A stretch of DNA of 45,184 nt from Alistipes onderdonkii (GCA_963630185.1 CAVGMG010000001.1:1-45184), one strand, 5' to 3'. Positions 56-36,492 are shown, numbered from the stretch's first letter. The notes: generated by a model from the letters alone, not told the origin. A program made the numbers and translations.

Positions 56-718
56 AAGACAGCCGCGTTCCGCGAGGACTGGATCGCCGACGCGGTCTAC
101 TCGAAGGCGCCGCCGCGCGACTCGATGAACGTCTACGTCTTCGTGGACGGCGCGAATTCGAAGCGGAAGGACTCGGACTACACGACCATGTGGGTGGTCG
201 GGCTCGGCTGCGACCAGAACTACTACGTCCTCGACGCGATCCACGACCGCCTCGACCTCGACGAGCGCACGAAGGCGGTCATCCGCCTCCACCGCAAGTG
301 GAAGCCCATCGCGGTCTTCTGGGAGCAGGTCGGCTGCATGAGCGACGTCGCGCACGTCAAATACGTCCAGAACAACGTCGAGAACTACCGCTTCCCGGTC
401 GTCGCCGTCCCGCGCGGCGCGAGGGATTCCAAGCGCATGCGCATCCTCAACCTCCAGGCGCCGTTCTCCCAGCGGCGGATCTGGCTGCCGCAGTTCGGCG
501 AGATCATGCGCCCCGGCTCGGACGGGCGCGTCCACGACGTGATCAAGGACTTCGTCGAAGACGAGTATCTCGTCTGGCCGAACTCCAGGCACGACGACAT
601 GCTCGACCCGCTCGCGGACATCCTCGACGAGGCCGTCGCGAGCAAGCTCGCTTGGCCGGACGCGCGGGAGCGCGACGAGACGTTCGAGGATGATGCCGAC
701 GACATCTTCTCGCGGTGA
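2..718 (+). CDS. terL: Terminase large subunit, C-terminal (nuclease) part; continuation of 44333-45184 across the circular junction
   Basis: Frame is open from base 2 to TGA 716-718 and is in phase with the ORF that runs off the window at 45184. VFVDGANSKRKDSDYTTMWVV...HDDMLDPLADIL looks like the RNaseH-like nuclease half of large terminases. Track ORF 125-718 is only its internal-Met portion. Confidence 0.85.
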   Translation, partial: QLGPYSAAALLDCSPVTNKTAAFREDWIADAVYSKAPPRDSMNVYVFVDGANSKRKDSDYTTMWVVGLGCDQNYYVLDAIHDRLDLDERTKAVIRLHRKWKPIAVFWEQVGCMSDVAHVKYVQNNVENYRFPVVAVPRGARDSKRMRILNLQAPFSQRRIWLPQFGEIMRPGSDGRVHDVIKDFVEDEYLVWPNSRHDDMLDPLADILDEAVASKLAWPDARERDETFEDDADDIFSR

Positions 719-3033: not shown

Positions 3034-3407
3034 CGAAGACCGCCAAGGAGAGGACGTTCGACGCGCTCTTCGAGCGCCGCAGCGAGGACCCGAAGGTCAC
3101 GCGCGAGCAGGCCGTCGAGCTCGAAAGGCGCCGCGACTGGTTCGACCGGCTTCTCGCCAACAGGGACTTCGTCGACTTCCTCGCGGAGATCGAGCTCCGC
3201 TTCGGCGGGCTGAACTACGGGACGGAGGAGGTTGACGCCTTCACGCAGGGCAAGCTCGGCATGCTCGGCGACATCAAGTCGATGCTCCTCGTCTCGGAGC
3301 GCGCGCCGAAGGTGTTCGCGGAGATCACGCGCCGGTTCTACCAGGACCAGACCGACGGCTGGCAGGAGATTCTGCTTCAAAACAAGAAGGAGACCACAGA
3401 TGAATGA
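3030..3407 (+). CDS. Hypothetical protein (125 aa) between portal and scaffold
   Basis: ATG 3030 overlaps the portal stop (ATGA). The real-looking sequence MTKTAKERTFDALFERRSED... is the tail of the off-frame track ORF 1536-3407. Confidence 0.55.
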   Translation: MTKTAKERTFDALFERRSEDPKVTREQAVELERRRDWFDRLLANRDFVDFLAEIELRFGGLNYGTEEVDAFTQGKLGMLGDIKSMLLVSERAPKVFAEITRRFYQDQTDGWQEILLQNKKETTDE

Positions 3408-4242
3408 ACTCATGACTTTCGGCGGACGCCTGAAAATGGCAGAAGCCGGCGGCGAGGGCGGCGGCGGAGACCCGAAGCCCGGAGAGGGCGGCGGCGGAGA
3501 CCCGAAGCCCGGCGAGGGCGGCGGCGAGACGCCGAAGGGCGGCGAAGAGCCGACGAGCGGCGAAACGACGAAGCCCGGCGAACAGAAGCCCGGCGAAACG
3601 ACGACGCCCGGCGAGGGCGGCGTCGACCAAAAGCCCGGCGAAGAGCCGACGAGCGCGGTCGCCAAGATGCTCAAAGGCGAGACGAAGCCCAAGGACGGCG
3701 AGAAGCCCGGCGAAGAGCCGAAGGGCGGCGAACAGAAGCCCGGCGAAGAGCCGAAGCCGTTCACCGACGAGGACTTCACGAAGGCGATGGTCGCGTCCGA
3801 GGCCGTCAAGAAGGCGGCCGGCGACGAGACGATCCAGCTCTCGCCCGAGCTCGTCAAGGGGATGCTCCCGGCGATCCGCAAGGCGAACCTCTCGCCCGAA
3901 CAGGCGAACGAGCTCGCCAACGCGCTCGCGGCGCAGCAGATCGCGGCGGCCAAGGCGCACGGCGAGCGTCGCCAGGCGGACATCGCCCAGATGAACGACG
4001 AGGCGATGAAACTCTTCCCCGACAGGCAGAGCTGGGAGTCGATCGGCGCGGGCGTCAGGCACTTCTTCAAGCCGGGCGGCGCGATGTTCGAGACGATCGC
4101 CCACTCGGAGCTTGGCAGCGACCCGGAGTTCCTCGCGATGATGAAGTGGGTCGGCGAGCGCGTCGCGAAGGACGGCCTCGGCGGCGCGCCCGGCGCCGGC
4201 GGCGAGAGGCGCGTCAGCTACGAGAAGGCGCTCATGGGATAG
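3400..4242 (+). CDS. Scaffolding protein candidate with repetitive Gly/Pro/Glu/Lys-rich N-terminus
   Basis: ATG 3400 (MNELMTFGG...) overlaps the upstream stop. Sits immediately before the capsid gene. Helical, charged C-terminal half. Confidence 0.55.
   Translation: MNELMTFGGRLKMAEAGGEGGGGDPKPGEGGGGDPKPGEGGGETPKGGEEPTSGETTKPGEQKPGETTTPGEGGVDQKPGEEPTSAVAKMLKGETKPKDGEKPGEEPKGGEQKPGEEPKPFTDEDFTKAMVASEAVKKAAGDETIQLSPELVKGMLPAIRKANLSPEQANELANALAAQQIAAAKAHGERRQADIAQMNDEAMKLFPDRQSWESIGAGVRHFFKPGGAMFETIAHSELGSDPEFLAMMKWVGERVAKDGLGGAPGAGGERRVSYEKALMG
3454..3513 (+). repeat. 30-nt tandem duplication (29/30 identical) encoding GEGGGGDPKP twice, plus degenerate PGE/K copies downstream to about 3760
   Basis: gagggcggcggcggagacccgaagcccgg(a/c) read twice back to back. 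Confidence 0.8.
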
Positions 4243-4300: not shown

Positions 4301-5365
4301 ATGGCTCATGAAATCAACCCTGGCGAAGGGATTTCTTTGAACGACCTGCGCGAGACGTTCGAAGACAAGTCCTCGATCCAGCGAATCGTGGTCGACGAGA
4401 TCCACAATCACGACGACCTCATCTCGGACGTGAAGTTCTATCCGTCCACCAAGACCGACCGCGACGAGGCGGAATACGAGACCGGCAAGCCCAAGGCGCG
4501 CCACCACATGATGGGCGAGGGGCGCGTCGCGTCGGGCCGCTCCAGCCAGGTCAAGTCCACGACGCCCTGCGAGAGCTACGCGATGCTCCGCATCCTCGAG
4601 GACCGCTTCCTCCGGCACAAGAAGGCCGGCACGGCCGAGGAGTTCCTGCGCAAGGAGGTCCGCAGCCAGGTCGCCTCGCTCGGCGAGCTCATGGTGATGG
4701 ACATGCTCTACGGCAGCCGCAAGGTCGACGTCAAGGGCATGAACGGCCTCGCGACGTTCTACTCGAAGATCGGCTCGACCTACGGCGCGGAGCTGGACTA
4801 CACGACCCGCACGATGGACGGCTTCCCCTCGACGCTCGACAAGAACACGGCGGCGAACGTCGCGAACCTCCGCGACGTCTTCGCGGTCACGTTCTCGGCC
4901 GAGGGCGTCAAGCCCTTCTACCCGAAGGACGTCGCGAACATCGGCCTCGACTTCGGCGAGAAGATGGAGCGCGTCCCGGAGAAGGACCCGAAGAACGGCG
5001 GCACGGTGTGGTACCTGGAGCGCGTCTTCACGTGGAACGGCGGCCTCAACGTCGTCAACCCGACGAAGGCCGGGCGCATCTGCAACTTCCCGATCGACAA
5101 GATCGCGACGGCGAGCGGCTACGCGAACGAGCTCCTCCAGAAGCTCATCCGCTTCACCGACCTCGTCAAGGCCGGCCCCGGCGAGAAGACGCTCCTCTAC
5201 ATGGACCCGATGCTCTGGACGGAGATCAAGATCCTGCTCGCCTCGCTCAAGTGGTCCAACGCCTTCAAGGACGAGGACATCGACACGACCCACAAGCGCA
5301 TGCTCTTCGGCAAGGAAGTCCGGCTCAACGAGAGCCAGGCGTTCGCGCAGAAGCTTGTCGCCTAA
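4301..5365 (+). CDS. Major capsid protein candidate
   Basis: 354 aa, directly downstream of the scaffold candidate. Size and position fit an HK97-fold capsid protein. No motif-level proof. Confidence 0.65.
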   Translation: MAHEINPGEGISLNDLRETFEDKSSIQRIVVDEIHNHDDLISDVKFYPSTKTDRDEAEYETGKPKARHHMMGEGRVASGRSSQVKSTTPCESYAMLRILEDRFLRHKKAGTAEEFLRKEVRSQVASLGELMVMDMLYGSRKVDVKGMNGLATFYSKIGSTYGAELDYTTRTMDGFPSTLDKNTAANVANLRDVFAVTFSAEGVKPFYPKDVANIGLDFGEKMERVPEKDPKNGGTVWYLERVFTWNGGLNVVNPTKAGRICNFPIDKIATASGYANELLQKLIRFTDLVKAGPGEKTLLYMDPMLWTEIKILLASLKWSNAFKDEDIDTTHKRMLFGKEVRLNESQAFAQKLVA

Positions 5366-5386
5366 ACCAGGAAAGGAACCAGGAAA

Positions 5387-6028
5387 ATGCACTACACCGC
5401 AGTTGAAGACCTCTTCCTCCGCGAGGAGACCATCGACAACGCCGTCAGCAACCTCAAGGGCGAGCGGACGGCCGCCGAGGTCGCCGCGCTCCCCGCGTCG
5501 TCCTGCACGACGGGCGACGTCTACAAGCTCACGACGGCCGGCTCGATCGGCGGCACGTCCTACGCCGGCAAGGGCGCGTTTGTCAAGGCGACCGTCTCCG
5601 GCGGCTCCGTGACGTGGGCCGTCGCCTCGGCGTCCGACGTCAAGGGCTACGTCGAGTCGGGCGTCCGCGACTGGAAGCGCTGGGGGCGCGACCACTCGAA
5701 GGACCTCGGCATCGCCGCGTGGGCCGAGAACGGCGCGTCGCTCGCGGCGGGCGCGGCGACCGTGACGCTGGAGACGTCCGCCGACCAGGAGGACTGGACG
5801 GAGATCGCCTCGGCGGCCGGTTCGGCGACCGGCATCGACTCGAACGGGCGCCTCGCGTTCTTCCTGCTGCCGCGCAGCGGGATCAAGCAGTTCGTCCGCG
5901 TCAAGGTCAAGGTCACGGCGCAGTTCACGGACGGGACTGCCGCGCTCGCGCCGGTGCTCTCCGTCGGCCTCGAGAACGACGGAGAGCAGGACATCGACCC
6001 GTCGATGGTCCAGCCGAAGGTCGGATAG
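5387..6028 (+). CDS. Hypothetical protein (213 aa), capsid-adjacent (decoration or minor head protein possible)
   Basis: ATG 5387 with aggaaa-type RBS and good GC3. Function unknown. Confidence 0.55.
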
Positions 6029-6653: not shown

Positions 6654-7574
6654 ATGGCAAAGGAAGTCACGTTTGAAATCGACGCCGCGTCCGGGACGGT
6701 CGTCCAGGACGGCGCGCTCTTCGTCGGCGGGCAGTCGGACGTCGTCTTCACGGGCTATTCCGGCACGTCGCCGGTCCTGATCCTCTTCCAGCGGCGTCCG
6801 GGGAACGTCCTCGCGCCGATCCAGATCACGAAGACGCCGCCGGGCGCGGCAAAGCCGCAGCTCGACCTCGACAACGTCGCGGCGCGGGCGTGCTTCGCGT
6901 GGAGCGGCCGCGAGAGGCCGCAGGCGAAAGTCGTCCTGGAGGCCTACGTCGTCGACGGAACGGGCGTCGCCGTCCAGACGGTCGAGAACATCTCGAAGCT
7001 CGTCGTCACAGGCTCGAAATGGATTCTCGCGTCAGGACAGGCGCAGGTCGGGTGGTCGCCCGTCAGTTTCGAGGCGGACGGCACCGCCGTCTCGCTCAAG
7101 GGCGACAAGGGCGACGCGGGCGCACAAGGCGAGAAGGGCGAGAAGGGTGACCAAGGCGACAAGGGCGAGAAGGGTGACACGGGCGCACAAGGCCTGAAAG
7201 GCGAGAAAGGCGACAAGGGCGACGTCGGCGCACAAGGCCCGACGGGCCCGAAGGGCGAGAAGGGCGACGCGGGCGCACAAGGCGAGAAGGGCGAGAAGGG
7301 CGAGAAGGGCGACCAAGGCGAGAAGGGCTATCGCGGCGACAAGGGCGACCGTGGCGACCAGGGCCCGAAGGGAAGCACGGGTGACCAGGGGCCGCGCGGG
7401 ATGAGCGCCTACGAGATCGCCTGCCTGCACGGCTACACGGGCACGGAGGCGCAGTGGGTCGCCGAAGAGACGGGCCTCCACTACGCGCTCGACAAGATCC
7501 GCGACGCCCTGACCGGCTCCGGAGAGGCGCTTGACATCATCGTCCAGTCGCTGGACGCCCTTAGGGAGGTCTGA
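6654..7574 (+). CDS. Collagen-like repeat fibre protein
   Basis: ATG 6654 after ggggaag. 33 uninterrupted Gly-X-Y triplets at 7101-7400 ([18 protein letters not shown]...GPRG), followed by a short C-terminal domain. Confidence 0.8.
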
Positions 7575-7577: not shown

Positions 7578-7685
7578 ATGAGCGCGCTGACGAACAGGGA
7601 GCTTGCCGACGCGATCGCGGAAGCGGTCGCCGGAAACGCGGCGCAAGTCGCCGGAATCATCTACAACGAACTGCAGGAGGTATAG
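7578..7685 (+). CDS. Possible 35-aa ORF (MSALTNRELADAIAEAVAGNAAQVAGIIYNELQEV)
   Basis: ATG 7578 preceded by gggaggt. It exactly fills the gap between the two fibre genes. Too short to judge. Confidence 0.3.
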   Translation: MSALTNRELADAIAEAVAGNAAQVAGIIYNELQEV

Positions 7686-7686: not shown

Positions 7687-9693
7687 ATGTCGTCGACGAC
7701 GGAAAGAGGGCTCGCGGACATCCGCGCCAAGATCGATCTCATGAAGAGCCAGGTGGCGGACAGCTACGCCGCGCTCGCCGAGCTGAACGTCCTGCCCTCC
7801 GGCTCGGCCAAGCTCGAAAACCTCCCGCAGACCATCGGGACGCTCGCCGCCGGGACGCTCGTCGCGTGCCGCCTCAACGCGACGGGGTCCGACTACCAGC
7901 TGCCCGCCTCCCAGGCGGACAGGGACGCGCTCCTCGCCGGCGCGAAGGTGAAGGTGCGCAACGAGGCCAACGAGGTCGTCGCCGAGGCGGCGGTCCCCGG
8001 GCTCGTCAACTCGACGTTCTTTGTGCAGGTGCCGGGCATCGTCGCCAAGACGCCCGTCAGCGTCGCCGTCGTCTTCGGCAACGACGACTACACGTGCGCG
8101 GCAATCCGCACCTATCTCGTGCCCGACCGCGTGACGAGCTGCTCGTTCGCGTCGAAGTGCTCGACGGGCGAGACGGAGGAGGTCGGCCGCTTCCAGCTCT
8201 TCGACGACGCGACCGGCACGAGCTACCTCATCCGCCGCGTCACGCGGCCGGACGGGACGGTCGCGCTGCACTACGGCGGCTTCTACGTCGACAACACCGG
8301 CACGGCCGTCTGGCAGAACCACTCCGGACTCTACACAACCGTCAAGAGCTGCGCGGACGCCTCCTCGGACGTCGTCGTCTCGACCGTCAACGCCTGCTCG
8401 GACGCGGGCGCGCGGAACATCGAGGACGTCCTCGACGTGCTCAAGGGCATGAAGCCGGTGACGGCGACCTCGACCGACGCCACGGGCGCGACGGTCGTGA
8501 ACAAGCTCATGATGTATCCGAAGTTCTACTGCAAGACCGAGAAGACGACGCTCCCGATCGTCACCTACAACGAGGACGGCTCGGTCGCCAAGACGGAGAC
8601 GAAGGCCGTCGTCGTCAAGTGGGCCGCGAACGCGAAGGTCGACGGCTCGTATCACGCGCACGCCGCGTTCGTCCGCTCCGTCCGCACCGGCGACGGCTAC
8701 GCCGAGACCGAGCTCGACCACTTCTTCTACTCGCGCTATCCGATGAACTGGACGAGCGTCCACCACACGGCGGGCGCGTCCTGCACCGTCGCCCAGTGCA
8801 CGAACGACGGCCTCTGCCCGACGACGGCGGTCTCGCGCAACAGCGCGAACGAATACGCCAGGAACCTGAACAGGCTCGCGTGCACGGTCGTCGACGACGC
8901 CACGGGCGAGACGGTCGCGAGCTTCGCGGCCAACGCCGACGCCCGCGCCTGGGCAGCGGCAAGCTCGCACGACATCGCCTTCTTCCAGTGGATCTGCGTC
9001 CTCATGTACGGCGTCGAGATCCAGACCGTCATCATGGGCAACTGCACGGCCGAAGGCTCGAACCCGCAGACGACGAACGGGCAGACCGACTGGCTCTTCG
9101 AGAAGGGCGTCCGCTTCGGCTCGGCGAACAACGCCTCGAACACGCAGCCCTGCCTCGTCGCCGGCGTCGAGGACGGCATCCACTCGTCGCAGGGGACGTT
9201 CATGAACGACCTCACCTACTTCGCCGAGCGGACGATCGACGACGACGGCACGGAGCACAAGCGCGCCTACATGGCCTACGCCAGGGACCGCCTCGACTGG
9301 ACGCCCGCCGTCTCCGCGCCGGAGACGCTCAAGGCGAACGGCTACCGCGAACTTTCCTTCGACCTCAACTCGAACGCGGACGCCGACGCGACGATCTCGA
9401 ATCCGCGCCGGCGCCTCGGCTACGACGAGGGCGTCGGCGCCCGCGACCTCATGATCATGTGCGCCTCGCAGACCGAGCCGAACTTCCAGGTCGCGGCCAT
9501 CGACAACTTCTGGTTCGGCGCGACGCCCGCCGTCGGCACGGCCGCTTCGTCGGCCTGCCTTGTCGCCCTCGGCCGCCACCGGAACAACGCCCGCTCGCTC
9601 GGGCTGTTCGCCGTCTTCGCCGCCAACGGGCTTGGCAACGCGAACGCGAACTGCTGGCGGCCGCGTCTCTCCTTACAGGTGGTCGGCGTGTGA
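7687..9693 (+). CDS. DGR target: tail-fibre / receptor-binding-like protein (668 aa) with the variable region at its C-terminus
   Basis: ATG 7687. The C-terminal ...CLVALGRHRNNARSLGLFAVFAANGLGNANANCWRPRLSL is the VR counterpart of the Asn-rich TR, a pattern typical of C-type-lectin-fold DGR variable proteins. Confidence 0.8.
   Translation: MSSTTERGLADIRAKIDLMKSQVADSYAALAELNVLPSGSAKLENLPQTIGTLAAGTLVACRLNATGSDYQLPASQADRDALLAGAKVKVRNEANEVVAEAAVPGLVNSTFFVQVPGIVAKTPVSVAVVFGNDDYTCAAIRTYLVPDRVTSCSFASKCSTGETEEVGRFQLFDDATGTSYLIRRVTRPDGTVALHYGGFYVDNTGTAVWQNHSGLYTTVKSCADASSDVVVSTVNACSDAGARNIEDVLDVLKGMKPVTATSTDATGATVVNKLMMYPKFYCKTEKTTLPIVTYNEDGSVAKTETKAVVVKWAANAKVDGSYHAHAAFVRSVRTGDGYAETELDHFFYSRYPMNWTSVHHTAGASCTVAQCTNDGLCPTTAVSRNSANEYARNLNRLACTVVDDATGETVASFAANADARAWAAASSHDIAFFQWICVLMYGVEIQTVIMGNCTAEGSNPQTTNGQTDWLFEKGVRFGSANNASNTQPCLVAGVEDGIHSSQGTFMNDLTYFAERTIDDDGTEHKRAYMAYARDRLDWTPAVSAPETLKANGYRELSFDLNSNADADATISNPRRRLGYDEGVGARDLMIMCASQTEPNFQVAAIDNFWFGATPAVGTAASSACLVALGRHRNNARSLGLFAVFAANGLGNANANCWRPRLSLQVVGV
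9542..9674 (+). repeat. DGR variable repeat (VR)
   Basis: 133 bp colinear with 9819-9951. There are 13 mismatches, and every one lies opposite an adenine of the TR. Confidence 0.85.
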
Positions 9694-9712
9694 GCGACGA
9701 GCGAAACACGCC
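9685..9712 (+). other. Hairpin 11 nt downstream of VR (7-bp stem ggcgtgt/acacgcc, 14-nt loop); candidate DGR target-recognition structure
   Basis: Read directly. DGRs characterised in Bordetella phage use a hairpin or cruciform just 3' of VR. Confidence 0.35.
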
Positions 9713-9818
9713 GCGAAAAAAACAAAAAGGAGCAACGAAAAAACGTCAATTTGGAAGAGTTCCGAAACGGAACGACGCAGGATCAAACGGGGATAAAACT
9801 GGAATATGGCAGAAGAGC

Positions 9819-9951
9819 CAACATCGTCGGCCTACCTTGTCGCCCTCGGCAACAACCGGAACAACGCCCGCTCGCTCGGGCTGTTCGCCGTCAACGCCAA
9901 CAACGGGCTTGGCAACGCGAACGCGAACAACTGGCGGCCGCGTCTCTCCTT
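9819..9951 (+). repeat. DGR template repeat (TR), non-coding
   Basis: Adenine-rich (AAC-rich) copy of the VR, 200 bp upstream of the RT. The last 21 nt (ctggcggccgcgtctctcctt) are A-free and identical in VR. Confidence 0.85.
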
Positions 9952-10151
9952 CCGCAACCGTGAAGCTCTCACGTGCAGAAAAGCTCTTCACCTGAACCGT
10001 AGCCACACCACACAAGGCATCCAGACGCCGGACGGCGGCATGCGCGTCCGGACTGCGGTGAAAGACCTGCATACCACGTGCGTTAGTAGGTCGTCGCGGC
10101 GTCTTCGCCGCGGCCTCTCGGGGACGCATAGCGGGAAAGGAGACCTCCTCC

Positions 10152-11162
10152 GTGCCGCATAGGGTCGGCCATCTTTGGGAGAGGATCGGCACGCTCGAGA
10201 ACGTCGAGCGCGCCTGGCTCGTCTACAACCGCAACCGCCCGCGACGGCTCCGCCGCGAATTCGACGCGGCGCGGTGCCGGTCGATCCACGAGAGGCTCTG
10301 CGCCATCGCCGAGGGCGGCGCGTCCGACATCTTCTCGAAGATCCGCCGCCGGACGATCTTCGAGCACGGCAAGGAGCGGCAGCTCGAAATCCCGACGTTC
10401 GACGGCTTCATCGCGCAGCAGGCCGTCTTCAACGTCCTCGCGCCGATCATCGACTCCCGTCTGCACGGCCGCACCTACTCCTCGCGCCCCGGCTGGGGGA
10501 TGCACAAGTGCGCGAAGGCGCAGATGCGGCTCGTCAACACGAAGCCGGCCCTCGCGAGATACTTCCTCTACTTCGACATCCGCAAGTTCTACCAGAACGT
10601 CCGGCACGAGGACGTCGAGAGGGCCGTCGCCCGGATCGTCAAGGACGAGAGGGCGATGCGCGTCGTGCGGGCGATCCTCGCCGCGACGCCGTCGGGGCTT
10701 CCGATCGGCTTCACGGGCTCGCACCACTTCGCGAACCTGCTCGTCGCGCCGCTCTACTACCTCGTCCGGGGCGTCGAGAAGGTCTCCGACTGCTACGTCT
10801 ACATGGACAACTTCATCGTCTACGGCAGGACGAAGCGGTCGCTCCACGTCGCGCAGGGCGAAGCCGAGGCCTGCCTCGCCGAGCTCGGCCTTGAGATGAA
10901 GCCGGACTGGCAGGTCGCGCCGCTGAAGGCGCGGCCCGTGGCGACGTGCGGCGTGAGAATCCGGCGCGGCGAGACGCCGAAGCTCTACAAGAAGCTCAAC
11001 CACCGCAATTTCAGGAACATCGACAAGTTCCTCGCCCATCCGACGAGACGGCTGGCGCGGGGGCTCGTGAGCCGGTACGGATGGCTCGCGGCGGTCGGAC
11101 GGGAACGGATCTTGAGCGACGCCGTGTCGCTCGACTACGTGAAAGGAAAGGCGAAAAGATGA
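10152..11162 (+). CDS. DGR-type reverse transcriptase
   Basis: GTG 10152 after aaggaga. RT motifs are GKERQLEIPTFDGFIAQQAV, YSSRPGWGMH, YFLYFDIRKFY (motif A Asp), GLPIGFTGSHHFANL and YVYMDNFIVYG (motif C). Confidence 0.85.
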   Translation: MPHRVGHLWERIGTLENVERAWLVYNRNRPRRLRREFDAARCRSIHERLCAIAEGGASDIFSKIRRRTIFEHGKERQLEIPTFDGFIAQQAVFNVLAPIIDSRLHGRTYSSRPGWGMHKCAKAQMRLVNTKPALARYFLYFDIRKFYQNVRHEDVERAVARIVKDERAMRVVRAILAATPSGLPIGFTGSHHFANLLVAPLYYLVRGVEKVSDCYVYMDNFIVYGRTKRSLHVAQGEAEACLAELGLEMKPDWQVAPLKARPVATCGVRIRRGETPKLYKKLNHRNFRNIDKFLAHPTRRLARGLVSRYGWLAAVGRERILSDAVSLDYVKGKAKR

Positions 11163-11452
11163 CACCAACGACAAGGCATTTCAACGTGCGGCCGGACGAG
11201 TTCGACGCGGCGGTCGACGCGGACGGCACGCTTCTCTCCGCCGAATGGCGCAAGGAGGTCGTCGAGAACGAGGACGGCTCCTTCGACGCCGTCTGCTGGT
11301 ATGCGCCCCAGTTCGTCGCCGCGTCGAGGGCGAGCGTCGCCGGCGCCCTCTTCGGCGTCTACATGAAGTGCGACGACGCCGACAAGCCCGACATGATGCA
11401 GTTCTACGCGCGCGCCCAGGCCTACGCCGAGGCGCTCCTCCCGAACGCATAG
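11159..11452 (+). CDS. Hypothetical acidic protein (97 aa)
   Basis: ATG 11159 overlaps the RT stop (ATGA). It does not look like a basic four-helix Avd. Confidence 0.55.
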   Translation: MTPTTRHFNVRPDEFDAAVDADGTLLSAEWRKEVVENEDGSFDAVCWYAPQFVAASRASVAGALFGVYMKCDDADKPDMMQFYARAQAYAEALLPNA

Positions 11453-11475
11453 CCGAAAAAGGAGACCCCGCGCCC

Positions 11476-11739
11476 ATGCCGACGCCAAACTCCGAGAAGT
11501 TCTCCCGCGTCTTCGAGCAGATCGACGACATCAAGGAGCGCGTCACGAAGATCGAGGTCTTCGAGTCCGTCGAGAAGGCGCAGCTCAAGGAGGTGTCGCT
11601 CAAGCTCGACGAGATGCGCGACACCCTGAACCAGATCGTCGGCAAGGACTCCGTCCGCGCGGCCGTCTACGGCGTCATCGGGTCGGTCGTCGCGGCCGTC
11701 GTCGTGTGGATCCTGACGCTCGTCAGGGACAACAGCTGA
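11476..11739 (+). CDS. Small coiled-coil protein with a C-terminal transmembrane helix (XhlA/holin-like)
   Basis: 87 aa. Heptad-like N-terminus (IDDIKERVTKIEVFESVEKAQLKEV) followed by AAVYGVIGSVVAAVVVWILTLV. Confidence 0.5.
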   Translation: MPTPNSEKFSRVFEQIDDIKERVTKIEVFESVEKAQLKEVSLKLDEMRDTLNQIVGKDSVRAAVYGVIGSVVAAVVVWILTLVRDNS

Positions 11740-11768
11740 AGGAAAAGGAAGGAAGGAGGAGAAAGGTC

Positions 11769-12194
11769 ATGGCAGACATCAAGACGGCGAAGCGGCTCTA
11801 CCGCCTGGCGAACCACTACCGCCTCAGCGGCTGCGCGCTTTTGCGGACGCTTTCGTTCCAGACGCTCGCCAACGACTTCAACGGCATAGGGCCGGAGTGG
11901 TTCCCGGAGCGCCTTCGCAAGGTGATGGACGCGCTCAGCGCGGACCTTTTGCCTGTCGCGTTCGTGCACGACGTCCGCTGGTCGCACTCGGACGGCAGCT
12001 TCTCCTATTTCGCCGCGTCCAACGCCGAGTTCAAGGCGAACGGCTACGCGGTCGCGCGGGCGAAATACCCGTGGTGGCGCCCGGCGCGATACCTGCGCAT
12101 GAACGAGGCGCGCGTCTTCGGAAACCTCTGCCAGGCGTTCGGATGGTCCGCATACCGGGCAGCCTACGAAAAACAGAAAGGAAGGAACAGATGA
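11769..12194 (+). CDS. Hypothetical protein (141 aa) with FNGIG...HDVRW motif pair
   Basis: ATG 11769. The motif spacing is reminiscent of the YxGxG/HDxxY (PLA2-like) or DUF1353-type signature. Weak. Confidence 0.55.
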   Translation: MADIKTAKRLYRLANHYRLSGCALLRTLSFQTLANDFNGIGPEWFPERLRKVMDALSADLLPVAFVHDVRWSHSDGSFSYFAASNAEFKANGYAVARAKYPWWRPARYLRMNEARVFGNLCQAFGWSAYRAAYEKQKGRNR

Positions 12195-12586
12195 AAAAGC
12201 TCATTCTCCCGCTTCTCGCCGCGTTCGCGGTCTGCGGATGCGGAAAGTCGGTCGACGTCGAGGGGCGCGGCATGTACGCGAACGCCAATTCGGGCGTCGT
12301 CGGCATCGGCGAGTTCGAGGTCGTCGCCTACCCCGAGGGGGTCGAGGGCGCCCGGATCAAATACGAGGAGGACACGGCGTGGCTGTCGCCGTCCACGAAG
12401 ACGCACGCCTTCAAGATCGACATCGTGGGCACGAACTCGTGCCGCCAGGTCTCGGGCATCGTCGAGAGCATCTGCGAGGCGTTCGTCGCCGCCGCGCCGA
12501 AGATCGCCGCGATCAACGCGGGAAGCGCGGCGGACGCCCAGGCGCCCTCGGCGAACGCCGTCGAATCCGCCGCGCTCGCCGAGTAG
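12191..12586 (+). CDS. Lipoprotein (131 aa)
   Basis: MKKLILPLLAAFAVCGCGK signal peptide with a lipobox-like VCGC. ATGA overlap with the upstream gene. Confidence 0.6.
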   Translation: MKKLILPLLAAFAVCGCGKSVDVEGRGMYANANSGVVGIGEFEVVAYPEGVEGARIKYEEDTAWLSPSTKTHAFKIDIVGTNSCRQVSGIVESICEAFVAAAPKIAAINAGSAADAQAPSANAVESAALAE

Positions 12587-12605
12587 GGGAAGGGGAAAGA
12601 CGGCC

Positions 12606-13184
12606 ATGTCCTGGACGCAGAAAGAGCTTGACACCTGCCAGGAGGCGTTCTACCTCCTGCGGCAGGACGTGGACGTCCCGACGCCGGAGACGGCCGACGC
12701 CGACGCGACCCTCGAATGGCGCAAGTGCGCCAAGGCGTTCGTCCGCGCGCGCGAGGAGATCCTTTGTGCGCACGACTGGACGTTCGCGCGCGCGGCCGGC
12801 CAAAGGGCTGACCTCTCGCGCTGGCCGGAGGGCGTCCGCAACGCCCTCGTCTACTGCCTCGCGCGGGAGCTCGCGATCCCCCTCGCCGGGCGCGTCGCCG
12901 ACATGCAGAACTTCGACGCGCTCTACCGCGACAAGCTCCGGCAGGCCATCGTCCGCGACCTGGAGGACGAGACGGCGGGCGACGCGACCGCGCAGGAGGT
13001 GCTCGCCGCGATCCGCGCCTACTACGCCGACGACAGCCGCCTCCCGATGTCGATCGCGAAGCTCGCCGAGAAGGTCGCGGCAGTCGAGGACTCCGCGCTT
13101 GACGAAATCCTCGCCGCGCATGCCTGGGAGAGCGACGTCACGGGCGGCTACGGCGTCATCTACAACGCGCTCAAGGAGGTGTAG
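12606..13184 (+). CDS. Protein made of two T7 gp11-like N-terminal modules (192 aa)
   Basis: Two copies of the ...EILxAH(D/A)W(T/E)(F/S) signature, with His codons at 12771 and 13119. Same module type as in the next gene. Confidence 0.55.
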   Translation: MSWTQKELDTCQEAFYLLRQDVDVPTPETADADATLEWRKCAKAFVRAREEILCAHDWTFARAAGQRADLSRWPEGVRNALVYCLARELAIPLAGRVADMQNFDALYRDKLRQAIVRDLEDETAGDATAQEVLAAIRAYYADDSRLPMSIAKLAEKVAAVEDSALDEILAAHAWESDVTGGYGVIYNALKEV

Positions 13185-13186: not shown

Positions 13187-15043
13187 ATGGCGGTCGATCT
13201 CTCGTCCCTTTCAGGCGGCGTCAAGGCGGCGTATCTCGCGCTCGTCGAGGCGAAGGCGGCCGGCGCGCTCGGGCTCGGCGCGGACGCCGTCAAGTTCTTC
13301 GAGGAGTCCTTCGAGCGCAGGCTCCAGCGCGCGCGCATCGAGGACCTGGAGGCGACCGCCTCGTCCGACCCGGTCGTCCGGGAGGTGCTCGCCGCCGTCC
13401 GCGCCCCGTTCGCGCAGGACGACCCGAAGCTCCCGGTCGCGATGGACGCGCTCTTCTCGCGCATCGACGCGACGCGCGCCGCCGCGTTCACGGAGGTGCG
13501 CGACGCCCACGCCTGGTCGTGGCTTGCCGCGACGCCGTCGGCGACGCCGGAGTCGGCGATGGACGGGCTCGCCCGCGCCGCCTTCGTCACCCTCCTCGCC
13601 GAGCGCCTCGCCGTCCCGTGCGGGCTCGGCGCGGACGCCGTCCAGCTCCTGGCGCAGAAATACCAGACCCAGATCGCGCGGGCGGTCGCGGCGGACCTCA
13701 ACGCGCAGATCGACGCGGCGGACGACGCGCTCGCCAAGGCCGTCTTCGCATCCGTCCGCTCGGCCTACGGCTTCGACGACGCGAAGCTGCCGCCGTCGGT
13801 GTCGGGGCTCGTCGGCCGCGTCAAGGCGGTCGCGCCGGTCGCGCTCGACGAGGTCAAGGCGGCCTATCCGTGGACGGGCGTGGACGCGGAGACGCCCTGG
13901 GAGAACCTGCCCGGCCTCGTCAAGGCGGCGTATCTCGCGTCGGTCACGGCGACCGTCGCGGTCGGGCTCGGCCTCGACGCCCAGGCGGCGGCGGCCTTCG
14001 AGCAGAAGAAGGCGCTCGCCCTCGCCCTCGCCAAGAAGGGCGAGCTCGACGCCGCGCTCGCGAAGAACGAGGACCCGATCCTCGCGCAGCTCGTCGCGAA
14101 CTTCCGGAGCGACGACGCCGGCCTCGCGGGCGCCTACGCGATCTACACCCAGCGCGTCAACGCCGTCGCCCTCGCCGCCTACGAGGAGGTCGAGCGGTCG
14201 CACGGCTGGCGCTGGATCGATTCGTCCTGGACGGACGAGACGCCGCTCGACGAGAGGCTCGCCGCGATGGACGGCCTCGCGAAGTCGGCCTACGTCGCGC
14301 TTGTCGTCCGCCAGCTCGCCGCCGCGTGCGGCATCGCGCCGGAGATGGCGCAGGTCTACGAGCAGCAGTACCAGACGCGCCTTCGCGCCGCGCGGGTCGC
14401 CGACCTGGAGACGACGCCCGTCGTGGACGAGGTGCAGCGCGAGGTGCTCGCGCTCGTCCGCGACACGTTCTCCGGCGACACCGCCCTGCCGCGCGACATG
14501 AAGGCCATCACGGACAGGATCGACGCGCTCAAGGACATGGCGCGGAAGGAGGTCCTCTCGGCGCACGACTGGAGCTTCGCCGAGGCCGACTACGCCTGCG
14601 ACGCCGCCATGACGGAGCACCCGGACAGGCTCTTCCCGTATCACGTCACGCTCCCGAAGGGGTGCCTGCTCGTCTCGGCCTGCTACGGCGAGGACGGCAA
14701 GGTGACGCAGTGGAAGCTGCGCGGCCGCGAGATCCACGCGCGGCGTCGCCTCTCGCGGGTCGTCTACGTCAGGGACGTGGAGGACTTCGCCGCCTGGCAT
14801 CCGAAGGCCTACCGCGCGTTCGTCCTCCGGCTCGTCGCCGACGTCGCCAAGTGCGTCGCGTCGAACCCGAAGGACCGCGCGTTCCAGGAGCAGCTCTACC
14901 GCGACGCGCTCGAAGAGGCGAAGGTCTGCGACGCGCGAAGCTCCAACGCCCCCGACGAGGCCTGGGGCGACAACGAGATCGCCGACGCCATGCTCGTCGG
15001 CTCGTCGCGGCGGGAGTTCGACGACCCGCTCTACAGGGGTTAG
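13187..15043 (+). CDS. Tail tubular protein A / adaptor (T7 gp11-like) with a four-fold repeated N-terminal extension
   Basis: The C-terminal ~190 aa (KEVLSAHDWSFAEADY...AYRAFVLRLVADVAKCVA...LEEAKVCD) resemble T7 gp11 (QSRGWTFN... pattern). Sits directly upstream of the gp12-like gene. Confidence 0.6.
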   Translation: MAVDLSSLSGGVKAAYLALVEAKAAGALGLGADAVKFFEESFERRLQRARIEDLEATASSDPVVREVLAAVRAPFAQDDPKLPVAMDALFSRIDATRAAAFTEVRDAHAWSWLAATPSATPESAMDGLARAAFVTLLAERLAVPCGLGADAVQLLAQKYQTQIARAVAADLNAQIDAADDALAKAVFASVRSAYGFDDAKLPPSVSGLVGRVKAVAPVALDEVKAAYPWTGVDAETPWENLPGLVKAAYLASVTATVAVGLGLDAQAAAAFEQKKALALALAKKGELDAALAKNEDPILAQLVANFRSDDAGLAGAYAIYTQRVNAVALAAYEEVERSHGWRWIDSSWTDETPLDERLAAMDGLAKSAYVALVVRQLAAACGIAPEMAQVYEQQYQTRLRAARVADLETTPVVDEVQREVLALVRDTFSGDTALPRDMKAITDRIDALKDMARKEVLSAHDWSFAEADYACDAAMTEHPDRLFPYHVTLPKGCLLVSACYGEDGKVTQWKLRGREIHARRRLSRVVYVRDVEDFAAWHPKAYRAFVLRLVADVAKCVASNPKDRAFQEQLYRDALEEAKVCDARSSNAPDEAWGDNEIADAMLVGSSRREFDDPLYRG

Positions 15044-15061: not shown

Positions 15062-17869
15062 ATGCTCTGGAAGCTCACGCAGAGGACGTTCAACGGCGGG
15101 CAGCTCGACAAGAGGCTCATGGGGCGCACCGACCTTGCGAAATACTACGAGGGCGCGAGCGTCCTCGAGAACTTCATCGTCAAGCGCCAGGGATGCATCG
15201 TCAAGCGTCGCGGCACGGTCGAGGTCGCGGACTTCACGGCGGCGACCGGCTGCGCGGCGATCTCGGACTACAGGCTCTTCCCGTTCTCGTTCGAGAGCGA
15301 CGGCGGCTACGTGGTCGCCTTCGTCGAGGACGCCCAGCTCGGGCGCAAGGCCTTCGTCTTCTCGAAGGCGGGCGCGGTCGTCGCGACGCTCGCGATCCCC
15401 TACGCCGGAACGGACTTCGCGCAGATCTCCTACGACCAGTCGGGCGACATGCTCTACCTCGCCCACCAGGGCTATCCGTTCGCGCGGATCACGCGCCACG
15501 CCGAATCCGACTGGCGCTACGAGGCCGTCGACTTCGAGCTCTGCGGCCACGCCGCGCTCCCGGAGACGCCGACGATCACGGGCTGCTCGCTCCTGCCGGC
15601 GGGCTCCTGGACGGGGACGGGCCCGTCCAAGACGATCTACTACATCGTGACGGCCGTCAAGGACGGCGTCGAGTCGCGCCCGAGCGACCCCTACGCCGTT
15701 TCCTACAACACGCCCTGGCCGGAGGGCTCGTCGGTCAAGGTCGAGATCGCCGCCCAGAGCCCGGCGCCGGACTACTACAACGTCTACAAGAAGGCCGACG
15801 CCTACACGGGGCTCGTCGGCACGACCTCGTCGGGCACGTCCGTCACCGGGCAGGAGGCGGTCACGACCCTGCCGACGGGGTCGGGCTGCTCGAAGGAATA
15901 CGCCGGGCGCACCGCGCCGCGCACGACGTTCTCCGGCAGGGTCGAAAGCTCTTCGGAGCGCAACGACGCGACGAACTACGGCTACGTCGTCGAGGGCGGC
16001 GTCTACACCGCCACCTACGCGACGGCGCTCGACGCCGACCAGTTCTGCCTCGGCCTCGGCTACGTCTGGTACGGCATGGCGATCGGCACGGTCGAGGACT
16101 GCCGGTACTACATCCAGTTCCTGCCCTGCAACTGCGCCGTCGTCCGCGCCGTCGCGACGTTCGCCGACGGGACGACGCAGGACATGGGGCTTTTGTCCGT
16201 CCCCGACGCCGCCAAGGCGACGATCTGCGACAACTCCGTCACCGGCAACCCGTATTCGAGCGGCGTCGGCGCGGCGATCGCGGCGAAGCGCACGGCCATG
16301 GCGCAGGGCGCGAAGCTCGTCTGGAACGTCCAGAACCGCCAGGGAAGGAAGGTCAAGTCCGTCACGTTCACGGCCTACTCGGACAGCGCGGCGACGACCG
16401 TCGCGGCGGGCTCGGTCGGCAACATGTCCGTCTCGGGCCCGGCCTGGGCGACGGTGAACGGCTACCCGTTCACCATTTGCGGCTTCTGGGCGCGGAAGAA
16501 CGCGACGGCCACCGTCAACGAGCTCGTCGACGAATACGTGACGGCGGACGCCTCGCTCACGCCGCCCGCCTACGAGCCGCACTTCGAGGACACGGGAAAA
16601 TACCCGGGCTGCGTCGCCCTCTACCAGCAGCGCCTCGCGCTCGCGCGGACGGTCGAGCAGCCGTTCACCTTCTGGCTCTCGTGCATCGGCGACCTCTACA
16701 ACTTCAACGTCCACGACTCGCTCCGCGAGGACGACGCGATGGAGGTGACGCTCCCGGCGACGAAATACCCGGACATCAACCACATGATCCTCAACCGCGA
16801 CCTCATCATGTTCTGCGACTCGGGCGAGTGGATCGTCGCGCCGACGTCTGGCGCGGCGCTCACCTACAAGACGATATCCACGAAGATTCAGTCGCAGATC
16901 GGGTGCTCGAAGACCGTCAAGCCCATCGCGGTCAACGACGACGTCGTCTTCGCGAACATGACGGCCGAGACGCTCGTCGCGACGAAATACTCGTATGCGA
17001 CCGACGGCTACGAGGCGACCGACCTCTCCGTCCTCTCGCAGGACGTCTTCCGGGGCAACGCCATCGTCTCGCTCGCCTACAAGCAGCATCCGGACTCGAT
17101 CCTCGTCGCGACGCTGGAGGACGGCTCCTTCGCGACGCTCGAATACATGAAGGAGCACGAGGTCGTCGCGTGGAGCCGCCACGAGCTGGGCGGCGGCCTC
17201 AAGGCGCGCGACTGCTGCGCCGACGGCTCGGTGACGAGCGGCACGACCGACGTCTACATCCTCGCCGAAGACCCGAACGCCGCCGGCGGGCAGTCCTTCC
17301 TCCTTTTGCGCGTCAAGGAGGACGCGCCCCTGACGACCGTCGGGAGCGCGGTCTCGATGGACCAGATGTCGACGGTCGCGACGGCGGGGACGGTGCCGGC
17401 GGGGTTCGTCGCGGTCAACGCGCTCACGGGCGAGACGCTCGCGGCGGGCGCGTCGCGCGCGGCGGGCGCGACCTACGTCCAGGGCCGCCCGTTCGCGGCC
17501 GTCTTCGTCTCGGTGAAGCCCGAGCCGAGCCCGAGCGAGACGGTGCAGTTCGAGGTCAAGAACCCGACCGAGGTCGAGATCCGCGTCAACGAAGGCTCGA
17601 CGTTCAGGGTCGGGCAATACGGCCTGCCCGAGGCGAAGGACCGCACCGTGAAGCTGGAGCCCGAGGTGACGGCCGCGACGGGCGCGATCCGTCTCCAGAC
17701 GGCCGACAAGGCGGCGCTCGTCGCCGGCGCGAACAACCGCGACGGACGCATTAGGCTTACGTCCGACGGCGTCTGGCCGCTCACCGTGCTCTCGATCTCG
17801 ACGACCTACCAGATCGAGAAGGCCAACCAGGAGCCACAGAAGGTTCCGGGAGGCGGCGATGCGTCTTGA
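15062..17869 (+). CDS. Tail tubular protein B / nozzle (T7 gp12-like)
   Basis: 935 aa. The N-terminal TFNGGQLDKRLMGRTDLAKYYEGASVLENFIVKRQG and the central ALYQQRLALARTVEQPFTFWLSCIGDLYNFN...DDAMEVTLP match the gp12 pattern known from T7-like phages. Confidence 0.7.
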   Translation: MLWKLTQRTFNGGQLDKRLMGRTDLAKYYEGASVLENFIVKRQGCIVKRRGTVEVADFTAATGCAAISDYRLFPFSFESDGGYVVAFVEDAQLGRKAFVFSKAGAVVATLAIPYAGTDFAQISYDQSGDMLYLAHQGYPFARITRHAESDWRYEAVDFELCGHAALPETPTITGCSLLPAGSWTGTGPSKTIYYIVTAVKDGVESRPSDPYAVSYNTPWPEGSSVKVEIAAQSPAPDYYNVYKKADAYTGLVGTTSSGTSVTGQEAVTTLPTGSGCSKEYAGRTAPRTTFSGRVESSSERNDATNYGYVVEGGVYTATYATALDADQFCLGLGYVWYGMAIGTVEDCRYYIQFLPCNCAVVRAVATFADGTTQDMGLLSVPDAAKATICDNSVTGNPYSSGVGAAIAAKRTAMAQGAKLVWNVQNRQGRKVKSVTFTAYSDSAATTVAAGSVGNMSVSGPAWATVNGYPFTICGFWARKNATATVNELVDEYVTADASLTPPAYEPHFEDTGKYPGCVALYQQRLALARTVEQPFTFWLSCIGDLYNFNVHDSLREDDAMEVTLPATKYPDINHMILNRDLIMFCDSGEWIVAPTSGAALTYKTISTKIQSQIGCSKTVKPIAVNDDVVFANMTAETLVATKYSYATDGYEATDLSVLSQDVFRGNAIVSLAYKQHPDSILVATLEDGSFATLEYMKEHEVVAWSRHELGGGLKARDCCADGSVTSGTTDVYILAEDPNAAGGQSFLLLRVKEDAPLTTVGSAVSMDQMSTVATAGTVPAGFVAVNALTGETLAAGASRAAGATYVQGRPFAAVFVSVKPEPSPSETVQFEVKNPTEVEIRVNEGSTFRVGQYGLPEAKDRTVKLEPEVTAATGAIRLQTADKAALVAGANNRDGRIRLTSDGVWPLTVLSISTTYQIEKANQEPQKVPGGGDAS

Positions 17870-18346: not shown

Positions 18347-19057
18347 ATGTTCACTCTCTTGGCATTCACGGGCGCCGCCATGCTCGGCTACGGCTTTTCC
18401 TCGGTCATGACGGCCCTCCTCGCCGACGTCGCCGTCACCGGCATCGCGCTCTCGACCTACTCCACCTACCAGCAGGGCGTCGCGCAGGGCAAGGCGAACG
18501 AGGCCAGCGCGAAGATCGCGGCGAACCAGGCGGCGGCGCAGGAGGCCCAGGCCCAGGAATACGAGCGGCAGGCCGCGCTCCAGAAGGAGCAGGAAGGCCT
18601 CGACCAGATCCAGGGCGAGCAGGAGGCGGCCAAGCGCGCCCGCGCCCGGGCGGCCGAAGTCGGCTCGACCTACGCCGCCGCCGCCGGCAACGGGCTTCTC
18701 GTGAGCGGCTCCGAGACCGACACCTTCGCGAACGTCCTCAAGTCGCAGGAGCAGGAGGCCCAGGCGGACATCCAGACGATCAGGGCCAACACGGCGCTCG
18801 GCGTCTGGAGCCGCGAGGAGCAGGCGCGGAGCTACCTCGTCGCGGCCCAGCAGTCGCGATACGGCGTCACCGGCTCGCTCCTGTCGTCGTCGAGCTATGC
18901 GAGCCAGGCGAGATACGCCCGCTCGAACGGCATCACCTCGGCCGCCGGGAGCGCGCTTTCGGGCGTGGCGACGACGGCGATCGGCGCGAACGGCCTCGCC
19001 AAGGAGACGGGCGGCTACCAGTGGGGCGGGACGAAGGTCGCCGCCTCGGCGAAGTAA
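18347..19057 (+). CDS. Internal virion protein B-like (position of T7 gp14), N-terminal membrane segments plus Ala/Gln-rich coiled coil
   Basis: ATG 18347. MFTLLAFTGAAMLGYGFSSVMTALLADVAVTGIAL followed by AAQEAQAQEYERQAALQKEQE. Confidence 0.45.
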   Translation: MFTLLAFTGAAMLGYGFSSVMTALLADVAVTGIALSTYSTYQQGVAQGKANEASAKIAANQAAAQEAQAQEYERQAALQKEQEGLDQIQGEQEAAKRARARAAEVGSTYAAAAGNGLLVSGSETDTFANVLKSQEQEAQADIQTIRANTALGVWSREEQARSYLVAAQQSRYGVTGSLLSSSSYASQARYARSNGITSAAGSALSGVATTAIGANGLAKETGGYQWGGTKVAASAK

Positions 19058-19080
19058 GAAAAAAAAGGAGGGGGCGAGAG

Positions 19081-21210: not shown

Positions 21211-21239
21211 CAGCTTGTCCAAAGAGGAGACCCAATCAC

Positions 21240-36481: not shown

Positions 36482-36492
36482 GACAAGACGGA

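Follow-up and report, generated by a model that had tools for sequence, protein, structure and literature searches.

The question raised by the locus described here is whether a gene, a pair of repeats and a reverse transcriptase (RT) gene that lie next to each other make up a working diversity-generating retroelement (DGR). The locus spans positions 7,687 to 11,162 of a 45,184-nucleotide (nt) stretch of DNA from Alistipes onderdonkii (GCA_963630185.1, CAVGMG010000001.1:1-45184), referred to below, at its full length, as the window. To our knowledge, DGRs are the only known natural targeted protein hypermutation system in prokaryotes and their viruses: a template repeat (TR) is copied with errors at adenines, and the copy replaces a variable repeat (VR) in a target gene. 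We found that the locus, which lies among the structural genes of a complete podovirus-like temperate phage, is very probably a functional or very recently functional DGR with the accessory-free order target-TR-RT. This kind of DGR is well known. The lineage to which it belongs is rare and distinct, and is defined by a combination of features: an RT with the motifs YMDN and IGxxx(S/A)H, no accessory protein Avd (Architecture A1, described below), a new family of target proteins of ~670-720 aa, a large-loop hairpin behind the VR, and a conserved spacer RNA between the TR and the RT gene. The lack of Avd, the YMDN and S-H substitutions and the large conserved loop go beyond the initial annotation.

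The repeat pair provides the most direct evidence. The initial annotation had described a VR at 9542-9674 and a TR at 9819-9951, each of 133 bp, that align without gaps and differ at 13 positions, always at a TR adenine. An exact ungapped comparison (offset 277) reproduced both intervals and the same 13 mismatch positions (TR 9820, 9821, 9823, 9834, 9851, 9852, 9854, 9893, 9894, 9899, 9900, 9929 and 9930). All 13 are changes from a TR adenine to C, G or T in the VR. A mismatch at a TR C, G or T, which the initial annotation had named as evidence against a DGR, was not found at any of the 107 non-adenine positions. The TR contains 26 A, 52 C, 34 G and 21 T, and the hypergeometric probability that all 13 mismatches fall on the 26 adenines among 133 positions is 2.9e-11. 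The three leftmost mismatches (9820, 9821 and 9823) lie in fading homology, so the 5' boundary of the repeats is soft, as is expected for a DGR. Within the core (TR 9824-9951), there were 10 mismatches and 23 adenines in 128 positions (P = 5e-9).

The adenines of the TR are not evenly spread over codons. In the reading frame of the VR, 22 of the 26 are within 11 AAC codons. As had been claimed, the changes were mostly at the first two codon positions (10 of 13), and 6 of the 11 AAC codons are unchanged in the VR. The VR ends 19 nt ahead of the stop codon of the target coding sequence. Both repeats end in the identical A-free 21-mer that the initial annotation had noted, the GC-rich sequence CTGGCGGCCGCGTCTCTCCTT (9654-9674 in the VR and 9931-9951 in the TR), which is like the 3' homology of an initiation of mutagenic homing (IMH) site. 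This sequence is confined to these two sites when up to three mismatches are allowed (0 expected by chance), and the VR and TR part directly after it. We found no second VR or remote target in the window; that is, there is a single VR and a single TR.

The RT gene that had been proposed behind the TR was found there, with an RVT_1 match at E = 1.2e-14. Its third-position G+C (GC3) is 0.93, like that of other genes. We placed the RT by similarity searches and a neighbor-joining tree, and not in a curated DGR RT reference tree. Profile searches put it with the RTs of DGRs rather than in a non-DGR clade. It matched PHROG 1423 (E = 3e-50), and its best match among all PDB sequences was the RT of a Bordetella phage (bRT; 8ub7_A, E = 3.5e-15), to which it is collinear end to end (residues 1-310 against 1-305, 27% identity, 336 and 328 aa). 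The best NCBIfam match, to a model of group II intron RT/maturase, scored 72.5 bits where the cut-off is 300, and retron and defense RT (DRT) models gave generic matches of at most 32 bits. A search of 50,697 deposited phage records gave 85 RT matches, all below 30% identity and with Bordetella phages among them. The nearest RTs among those listed, at 22-29% identity, are from the DGRs of gut phages: crAss-like phages (LMMB, cr50_1 and cr10_1), the Bacteroides hankyphage p00, and Lactobacillus LBR48.

Two motifs of the window's RT depart from those of canonical DGR RTs. Motif C, which is canonically YxDD and reads YMDD in bRT, is YMDN (residues 217-220, nt 10800-10811); the second aspartate is absent and N220 is in its place. 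The aspartate of motif A is D142. The second departure is IGFTGSH (residues 185-191, nt 10704-10724), the counterpart of IGSLTSQ in bRT. The sequence [I/V/L]GxxxSQ is characteristic of DGR RTs, although it is a signature and not a strict requirement (PMC7826257). Here, I181 of bRT is kept and Q187 of bRT is replaced by His. In bRT, R74 and I181 promote adenine mutagenesis, and the change Q187P leaves the misincorporation frequency as it was (PMC7826257). The equivalents of R74 and I181 are kept in the window's RT, as R76 and I185. We also found signature variants with SP, SH, SS and SA in other RTs that are beside A-only TR/VR pairs. Because Q187P leaves that frequency unchanged, because S/A-H is fixed in 44 of 45 members of the clade described next, and because such variants flank A-only pairs, we take IGFTGSH to be a lineage variant that does not exclude a DGR.

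The departure in motif C is the property of a clade. Among 5.8 billion clustered proteins, only 38 relatives of the RT were retrieved. When 1.84 billion representatives were searched with a profile, 13,311 RTs had E <= 1e-3; of these, just the ~17 highest-scoring ones (>190 bits) group with the window's RT, and next come DGR-type RTs with IGxxxSQ and YxDD. In a neighbor-joining tree of 175 sequences plus bRT, the window's RT was in a pure YxDN clade of 45 members (30 with S-H, 14 with A-H and 1 with S-P), in which IGxxx(S/A)H was present in 44 of 45 and YMDN in 45 of 45. The clade was found in gut and rumen metagenomes, and none of the 50,697 deposited phage records contains a member. Residues D142, Y217, M218, D219 and N220 are invariant in the clade across 37-83% identity, and the RT motifs and full length are kept. 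Because YMDN is invariant over this range, N220 appears to be under purifying selection and not to be a lesion.

YxDN is not confined to the clade: no fewer than 10 other singletons or small groups with it are scattered among YxDD DGR RTs (proteins P0062, P0068, P0103, P0110, P0118, P0124, P0133, P0134, P0137, P0139, P0146, P0169 and others; loci L013, L022, L029, L030, L057 and L062). At least three of these other lineages (VLIG..SQ/LRYMDN, IAIGFQPSH/VRYMDN and LAIGYYPSQ/VRYMDN) have A-only TR/VR pairs. Given the recurrence of YxDN in these independent lineages, several of them with A-only pairs, loss of the second aspartate appears to have been tolerated repeatedly. DGR RTs may thus differ from other RTs in tolerating, or even exploiting, the absence of this carboxylate. 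The literature searched contained no relevant paper on YMDN or YxDN in RTs or DGRs, which does not prove that the variant is unreported.

The arrangement of the window recurs in its relatives. We took 100 loci (L001-L100), 99 of them via RT relatives and one from Bordetella phage BPP-1, and scanned the relative loci for repeat pairs with at least 75% of the mismatches at one base. There were 20 distinct TR/VR pairs beside related RTs, with 9-19 mismatches each and 89-100% of these at A. All clade members with enough upstream DNA have the TR directly 5' of the RT gene, and the gene ahead of the TR carries the VR at its 3' end. The mismatches at A, out of the total, were 16/16 (L001), 13/14 (L002), 11/11 (L004), 16/17 (L005), 13/13 (L008), 17/19 (L010), 18/19 (L011), 15/15 (L012), 17/17 (L034), 17/19 (L035), 18/18 (L041), 16/17 (L044), 12/12 (L045), 13/14 (L046), 9/9 (L047), 15/15 (L048) and 13/13 (L052). 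In more distant YxDN loci, with S-Q or other contexts, the corresponding values were 17/17 (L013), 21/22 (L022), 15/15 (L029), 14/14 (L030) and 17/17 (L062).

Close relatives differ from each other in the way that ongoing mutagenic homing would produce. Two loci from different samples, L004 and L005, have identical RT proteins, identical TRs, and 1210 bp of identical DNA from the end of the TR to the end of the RT gene. In the VR region, 14 of 165 positions differ, and 13 of these are opposite TR adenines; in the target gene outside the VR, 15 of 1851 positions differ. The 15 members of one target cluster (P0043, at least 90% identity) have 14 different C-terminal 60-mers, with up to eight residues per AAC-templated column in a constant framework (LVALG..R..GRSLGLF.V.A..AL..A.A..WRPRLSLQVVG). 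Clusters P0044 and P0040 are likewise hypervariable at AAC-templated positions. This population-level variation indicates that DGRs with this type of RT are active. The mutagenic homing proposed in the initial annotation is thus borne out by the A-only mismatches, the DGR-type RT, and the relatives with A-only pairs and hypervariable AAC sites.

Two of the loci have additional features. In a 76-kb relative (L002/L003/L007, ~10906-12300, minus strand), the RT gene shares its final ~115 nt with a TnpB (OrfB_IS605) gene on the opposite strand, and the DGR mismatches are still 13/14 at A. A locus from a metagenome-assembled genome (MAG) of Bacteroidota (L036) has a canonical DGR (YADD, S-Q) with one TR (3819-3898) and three VRs (3221-3300, 3636-3714 and 5381-5459), in which 11/11, 12/13 and 14/14 mismatches are at A.

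We also found the hairpin that had been proposed behind the VR. Its 8-bp, GC-rich stem pairs 9684-9691 with 9706-9713 and encloses a 14-nt loop (9692-9705) that contains GAGCGACGAGCGA. The fold alone is no stabler than that of shuffled sequences (z = 0.08). The stem is conserved by compensatory changes: among the 14 listed relatives there are nine distinct stem sequences, in which the bases change and the pairing is kept. For example, the 5' and 3' arms are CGGCGTGT and ACACGCCG in the window, CGGCGCG and CGCGCCG in L001, CCCGCGT and ACGCGGG in L008, GCCCC and GGGGC in L011, GACCCC and GGGGTC in L035, GCGGGC and GCCCGC in L034, and GGCGGC and GCCGCC in L044. The loop of the relatives is 13-14 nt, with the consensus GA[GA][CT][GA]A-N-GA[GA][CT]GA, or, in simplified form, GAGCGA-Y-GAGCGA with its tandem GAGCGA units. 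The window contains the loop motif just once, and exact matches are confined to clade loci. Canonical neighboring loci have stems of the GGGGG/CCCCC type and short loops (roughly 3-7 nt). Target hairpins of phage DGRs have a stem of 7-10 bp and a 4-nt GRNA loop and are 4-34 bp from the VR, and in BPP-1 the addition of 2 nt to the loop abolishes homing (Guo et al. 2011, PMC3240598). The stem and position of the window's hairpin agree with this description, but its loop of 13-14 nt in the clade, which is not a GRNA tetraloop, does not.

The 200-nt spacer between the TR and the RT gene probably functions as RNA. The hairpins that the initial annotation had placed at 10028-10051 and 10095-10112 are present, as parts of a conserved structured RNA. 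The order of elements in the spacer (Table) is common to 13 distinct clade loci, and the hairpin sequences are unrelated between loci. RNAalifold on nine loci gave 15 consensus pairs, eight of them with double compensatory changes, in a CACC/GGTG helix that encloses the first hairpin and in long-range helices that enclose the second. An open reading frame (ORF) that continues the TR frame through the spacer (9806-10162) was considered as an accessory gene and rejected; it has stops in L011, L034 and L035. In L011 the conserved spacer motifs are in frame 2 and the TR is in frame 0. Because this ORF is interrupted and the motifs are out of the TR frame in L011, the spacer appears to be conserved as RNA. 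The BPP-1 spacer is needed for priming and for RT binding (PMC6182149; bioRxiv 10.1101/2023.10.23.563531). By analogy, the window's spacer would have the same role.

The initial annotation had called the target a tail-fibre-like protein with a diversified C-terminus. The second part of this claim holds: the last ~45 codons of the 668-aa target are diversified by the DGR. The tail-fibre label did not gain support of its own, and gene position is what speaks for it. The target family consists of just seven clusters at 90% identity and co-occurs with the RT clade. The clade targets are homologous over their whole length, and therefore RT and target travel as a cassette. The target had no match in Pfam, NCBIfam or PHROGs, none in a profile search of PDB, and none in a protein search with its C-terminal 288 aa. 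By hhalign, the probability was 0.1% against Mtd, the target protein of BPP-1, and 0.8% against ten neighboring DGR targets. From the VR peptide, the initial annotation had expected a C-type lectin (CLec) fold; variable proteins of the Mtd/TvpA type display their VR residues on the binding surface of a CLec or FGE-sulfatase-like fold. Pfam searches with all clade targets gave no significant link to CLec proteins. AlphaFold2 models, made from an alignment of seven sequences, had predicted local distance difference test (pLDDT) scores of 43 for the full protein and 33.6 for the C-terminal 295 aa and were unusable for fold assignment. The layout of the VR peptide, G-x-x-R...G...W/F-R-x-R-L, resembles that of other DGR targets by eye only.

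Based on the position of its gene, the target is probably a receptor-binding or tail-fibre-associated protein. It is possible instead that the DGR is genuine and that the target is some other virion protein or a lysogenic-conversion protein, with no switching of tropism. That the target has no homology to an annotated tail fibre or to Mtd, and that its structure cannot be predicted (pLDDT 34-43), is compatible with this, but we consider it unlikely. The gene is inside a structural operon, after a collagen-like protein that matches tail-fibre PHROGs (E = 1.6e-33) and a 35-aa ORF, and before homologs of tail-tubular/nozzle proteins. The L002 homolog of the target comes after a PKD/LRR protein of 3538 aa. 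Four of nine clade targets (L002, L011, L012 and L034) have, directly ahead of the VR (alignment columns ~330-370), a carbohydrate-binding CBM_5_12 insert, which fits a ligand-binding role; the window's target is without it. There is also the precedent of BPP-1, in which mtd follows the fibre gene.

A second property that had to be weighed is the lack of Avd. The 125 bp from the target stop codon to the TR contain no avd gene. We found no match to PF05635 or another Avd-like Pfam family at E <= 1 among 20 small ORFs of the complete genome, no match to the BPP-1 Avd by phmmer in any ORF of any locus, and no Avd-type Pfam family in the gene annotations of L001-L006. Two candidates were rejected: an ORF at 38459-38944 (161 aa, with a sub-threshold HEPN match, E = 8e-4) is 27 kb away, and a 97-aa ORF that overlaps the RT stop codon (11159-11452), acidic by eye, was detectable in close relatives only. 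According to Wu et al. (2018, PMC5758913), avd is present in 74% of DGRs, and DGRs of Architecture A (29%) have no accessory genes; A1 has the order target-TR-RT, one lineage is avd-less, and Avd-independent homing has already been proposed for accessory-free DGRs. Because Architecture A DGRs lack accessory genes, the absence of Avd is a known variant and does not disqualify the locus.

Several points weigh against a functional DGR of the kind we propose. Loss of the second aspartate of motif C (compare D186 of HIV-1 RT) is expected to cripple other RTs. A scan of 9500-11600 for promoters and terminators found none, and thus no sigma-70-type promoter for the TR RNA. The activity of the window's own DGR is judged from its relatives, and the tail role of its target from gene context. 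Avd is essential in BPP-1 (PMC12875486), and none is detectable here. Avd proteins are poorly conserved (PMC5758913), and a very divergent Avd could have escaped detection.

These points bear on a second alternative, that the DGR has decayed, with VR/TR differences that are fossils and an RT that, with YMDN and without Avd, is catalytically dead. The replacement of YxDD by YMDN and the failure of the Pfam (20 small ORFs) and phmmer searches to find Avd could be read in this way, as could the 6 of 11 AAC codons that are unchanged in the VR. The window's proteins P0001 and P0039 are singletons, and the population data are those of relatives. We nonetheless regard decay as very improbable. YMDN is invariant in 45 RTs at 37-83% identity in which the other motifs and the length are intact, as purifying selection would have it, and the GC3 of the RT gene matches that of other genes. 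A-only pairs are present wherever the flanking DNA of a clade member is long enough to show them, nearly all differences between near-identical relatives are at A-templated VR sites, and YxDN recurs in the other DGR RT lineages, with A-only pairs in at least three of them.

A last alternative, a segmental duplication or gene conversion with chance or biased differences at A beside an unrelated group II intron, retron or defense RT, finds some support in the best NCBIfam match (72.5 bits against 300) and in the absence of any Rfam family from the window, and is scarcely credible given the P value of 2.9e-11, the replacement of A by C, G and T alike, the non-coding and AAC-rich TR copy, the lack of intron RNA domains and of a maturase or endonuclease extension in an RT that is collinear with bRT, the low scores of retron and DRT models, and the recurrence of the repeat-RT arrangement in relatives at 37-83% RT identity.

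If the locus is a functional DGR, as we propose, it would work as follows. RNA of the TR and the spacer would be bound by the RT encoded downstream, as the conserved architecture of the spacer suggests. The RT would copy the TR faithfully at U, C and G and misincorporate opposite A, which would leave the A-only differences that are seen. The resulting cDNA would replace the VR, with the 21-mer and the hairpin setting the 3' boundary and the direction, by analogy with BPP-1. Some 13 residues close to the target's C-terminus would be randomized, as is seen in populations of relatives; because 22 of 26 TR adenines are in 11 AAC codons, this would happen without stop codons. If the target is a receptor-binding tail component, as gene context makes probable, the phage could thereby shift its specificity for ligand or host.

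It is possible that this is more than a variation on BPP-1. We suggest tentatively, and with slightly less than even confidence, that it is a mechanistically distinct, minimal two-component DGR (RT and RNA) that has no Avd and no second catalytic aspartate and that recognizes its target site via the conserved hairpin with a 13-14-nt loop. A GDN motif is known from the polymerases of mononegaviruses. By analogy, YMDN could mean that metal ions are coordinated differently, and it may be one of the reasons why synthesis is inefficient and adenine-mutagenic.

DGRs are being rebuilt as tools for protein evolution, and the mechanistic work cited here uses the bRT-Avd-RNA complex of BPP-1. If true, an active lineage free of Avd would be a simpler system to engineer, one that keeps the equivalents of R74 and I181 for mutagenesis at A. 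It would also be a natural experiment that links the chemistry of the RT active site (the replaced aspartate) to selective infidelity, and its different target hairpin would offer another way to approach cDNA integration, a step that is still unsolved. For annotation, the gain is a complete temperate phage genome and a new, hypervariable and probably receptor-binding protein family in gut and rumen phages.

Among the closest known systems is the prototype, the DGR of BPP-1 (mtd-avd-TR-brt). In both, the DGR is in the structural module of a temperate podovirus-like phage, the VR is at the 3' end of the target gene, and a TR of ~130 bp, AAC-rich and with A-only differences, is upstream of the RT gene. 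The VR and TR share a GC-rich 3' segment, which in the target is succeeded by a GC-rich hairpin at or behind the stop codon, and the TR-RT spacer is structured. The RTs are equal-sized and collinear, with 27% identity and with R74 and I181 conserved. In contrast to BPP-1, the window has no avd between target and TR, and its RT has YMDN and IGFTGSH where bRT has YMDD and IGSLTSQ. Its hairpin loop is 14 nt of tandem GAGCGA and not a 4-nt GRNA loop, and its 668-aa target is unrelated in sequence to the 381-aa Mtd. The cassette is between capsid/fibre and tail-tubular genes, whereas that of BPP-1 is at the end of the module.

In gene order the locus is like Architecture A1 and the avd-less Lineage 3 of PMC5758913: target-TR-RT, with no avd, HRDC, MSL or CH1 gene. 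Lineage 3A is there restricted to Bacteroides and relatives; the window's phage has a G+C content of 67%. The main text of that paper does not contain the terms 'motif 4', 'motif 5', 'catalytic' or 'YADD', its section on RT genes is silent on YxDN and S-H variants, and a large-loop target hairpin was not found in the passages searched. None of the gut-phage DGR RTs named above belongs to the YMDN/S-H clade.

The window is a complete, circularly closed phage genome of ~45.1 kb, because its ends share an exact 55-bp overlap (1-55 = 45130-45184) and the gene of the large terminase (TerL) is split across them (44171-45184 and 2-718). Since the G+C content is ~67%, many long ORFs are spurious; frames were therefore picked by GC3, and we built the gene map (Table) from PHROGs and Pfam matches. 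The genome is that of a temperate podovirus-like phage, with a structural module that broadly resembles that of BPP-1.

Table. Features of the window, with positions counted from its first nucleotide
Feature	Coordinates	Strand	Remarks
TerL, C-terminal part	125-718		
Portal	1267-3033		
Major capsid protein	4301-5365		
Collagen-like protein	6654-7574		G-X-Y, 9-bp periodic repeats; matches >40 tail-fibre PHROGs, E = 1.6e-33
35-aa ORF	7578-7685		
DGR target gene	7687-9693	+	668 aa; GC3 0.95; length and start same as in relatives
VR	9542-9674	+	unambiguous core 9547-9674
Hairpin/cruciform element	9684-9713	+	9 nt past VR; overlaps stop codon 9691-9693
TR	9819-9951	+	
TR-RT spacer	9952-10151	+	200 nt; putative 3' part of DGR RNA
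Spacer anchor ACACCACACAAGG	10005-10017		clade consensus ACACCAC[AT]CA[AG][AG]G
Spacer hairpin H1	10028-10051		sequence unrelated between loci
Spacer motif CGGTGAAAGA	10056-10065		clade consensus CGGTGAAA.A, then short middle segment
Spacer TAGTAG	10084-10089		
Spacer GC hairpin H2	10093-10114		sequence unrelated between loci
Spacer TCGGG	10118-10122		clade consensus TCG[AG][AG]
Ribosome-binding-site-like GGAAAGGAG			ahead of RT GTG start
RT gene	10152-11162	+	336 aa; GTG start; RVT_1 match
Small genes	11159-13184		
Tail-tubular/nozzle-like proteins	13187-15043 and 15062-17869		
Internal-virion-protein-like genes	18.3-21.2 kb		
Polyvalent protein	21240-34601		4453 aa
Integrase	35366-36481		
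ParB-like protein	40240-41952		

Some of the relatives come from MAGs whose labels disagree (one Faecalibacterium prausnitzii, another Kiritimatiellia), and we do not claim any host on the strength of these inconsistent labels. Binning of phage contigs is unreliable, and 67% G+C is a poor fit to Faecalibacterium. A tRNA scan of the window found none, and no Rfam family was found anywhere in it at gathering thresholds.

The lysogeny region, which is lower in G+C, contains three tandem copies of a unit of ~81-93 nt (36484-36756) directly 3' of the integrase gene. Identity to the reference copy is 78-89%, and a regulatory or att-associated role of these repeats is possible. A Lar-like restriction-alleviation protein is encoded at 38194-38412 (Pfam E = 1.4e-10), and the 161-aa ORF with the HEPN match comes after it.

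The giant gene at 21240-34601, behind the internal-virion-protein-like genes, has a GTG start after AGGAGA. Two domains were recognized in its product, ddrB-ParB at aa 1240-1369 and LPD23 (a 'large polyvalent protein' domain) at aa 2202-2252, besides a weak match to phosphoribosyltransferase. A longer, mechanically called ORF (18897-34601, 5234 aa) was rejected as an artefact of high G+C; the GC3 frame changes at ~19021 and 21240. Within the giant gene, at ~29100-29700, the GC3 of its own frame falls from ~0.95 to ~0.6 and that of another frame rises (ORF 29233-29604). An insert, a segment of foreign composition or a frameshift in the assembly could account for this.

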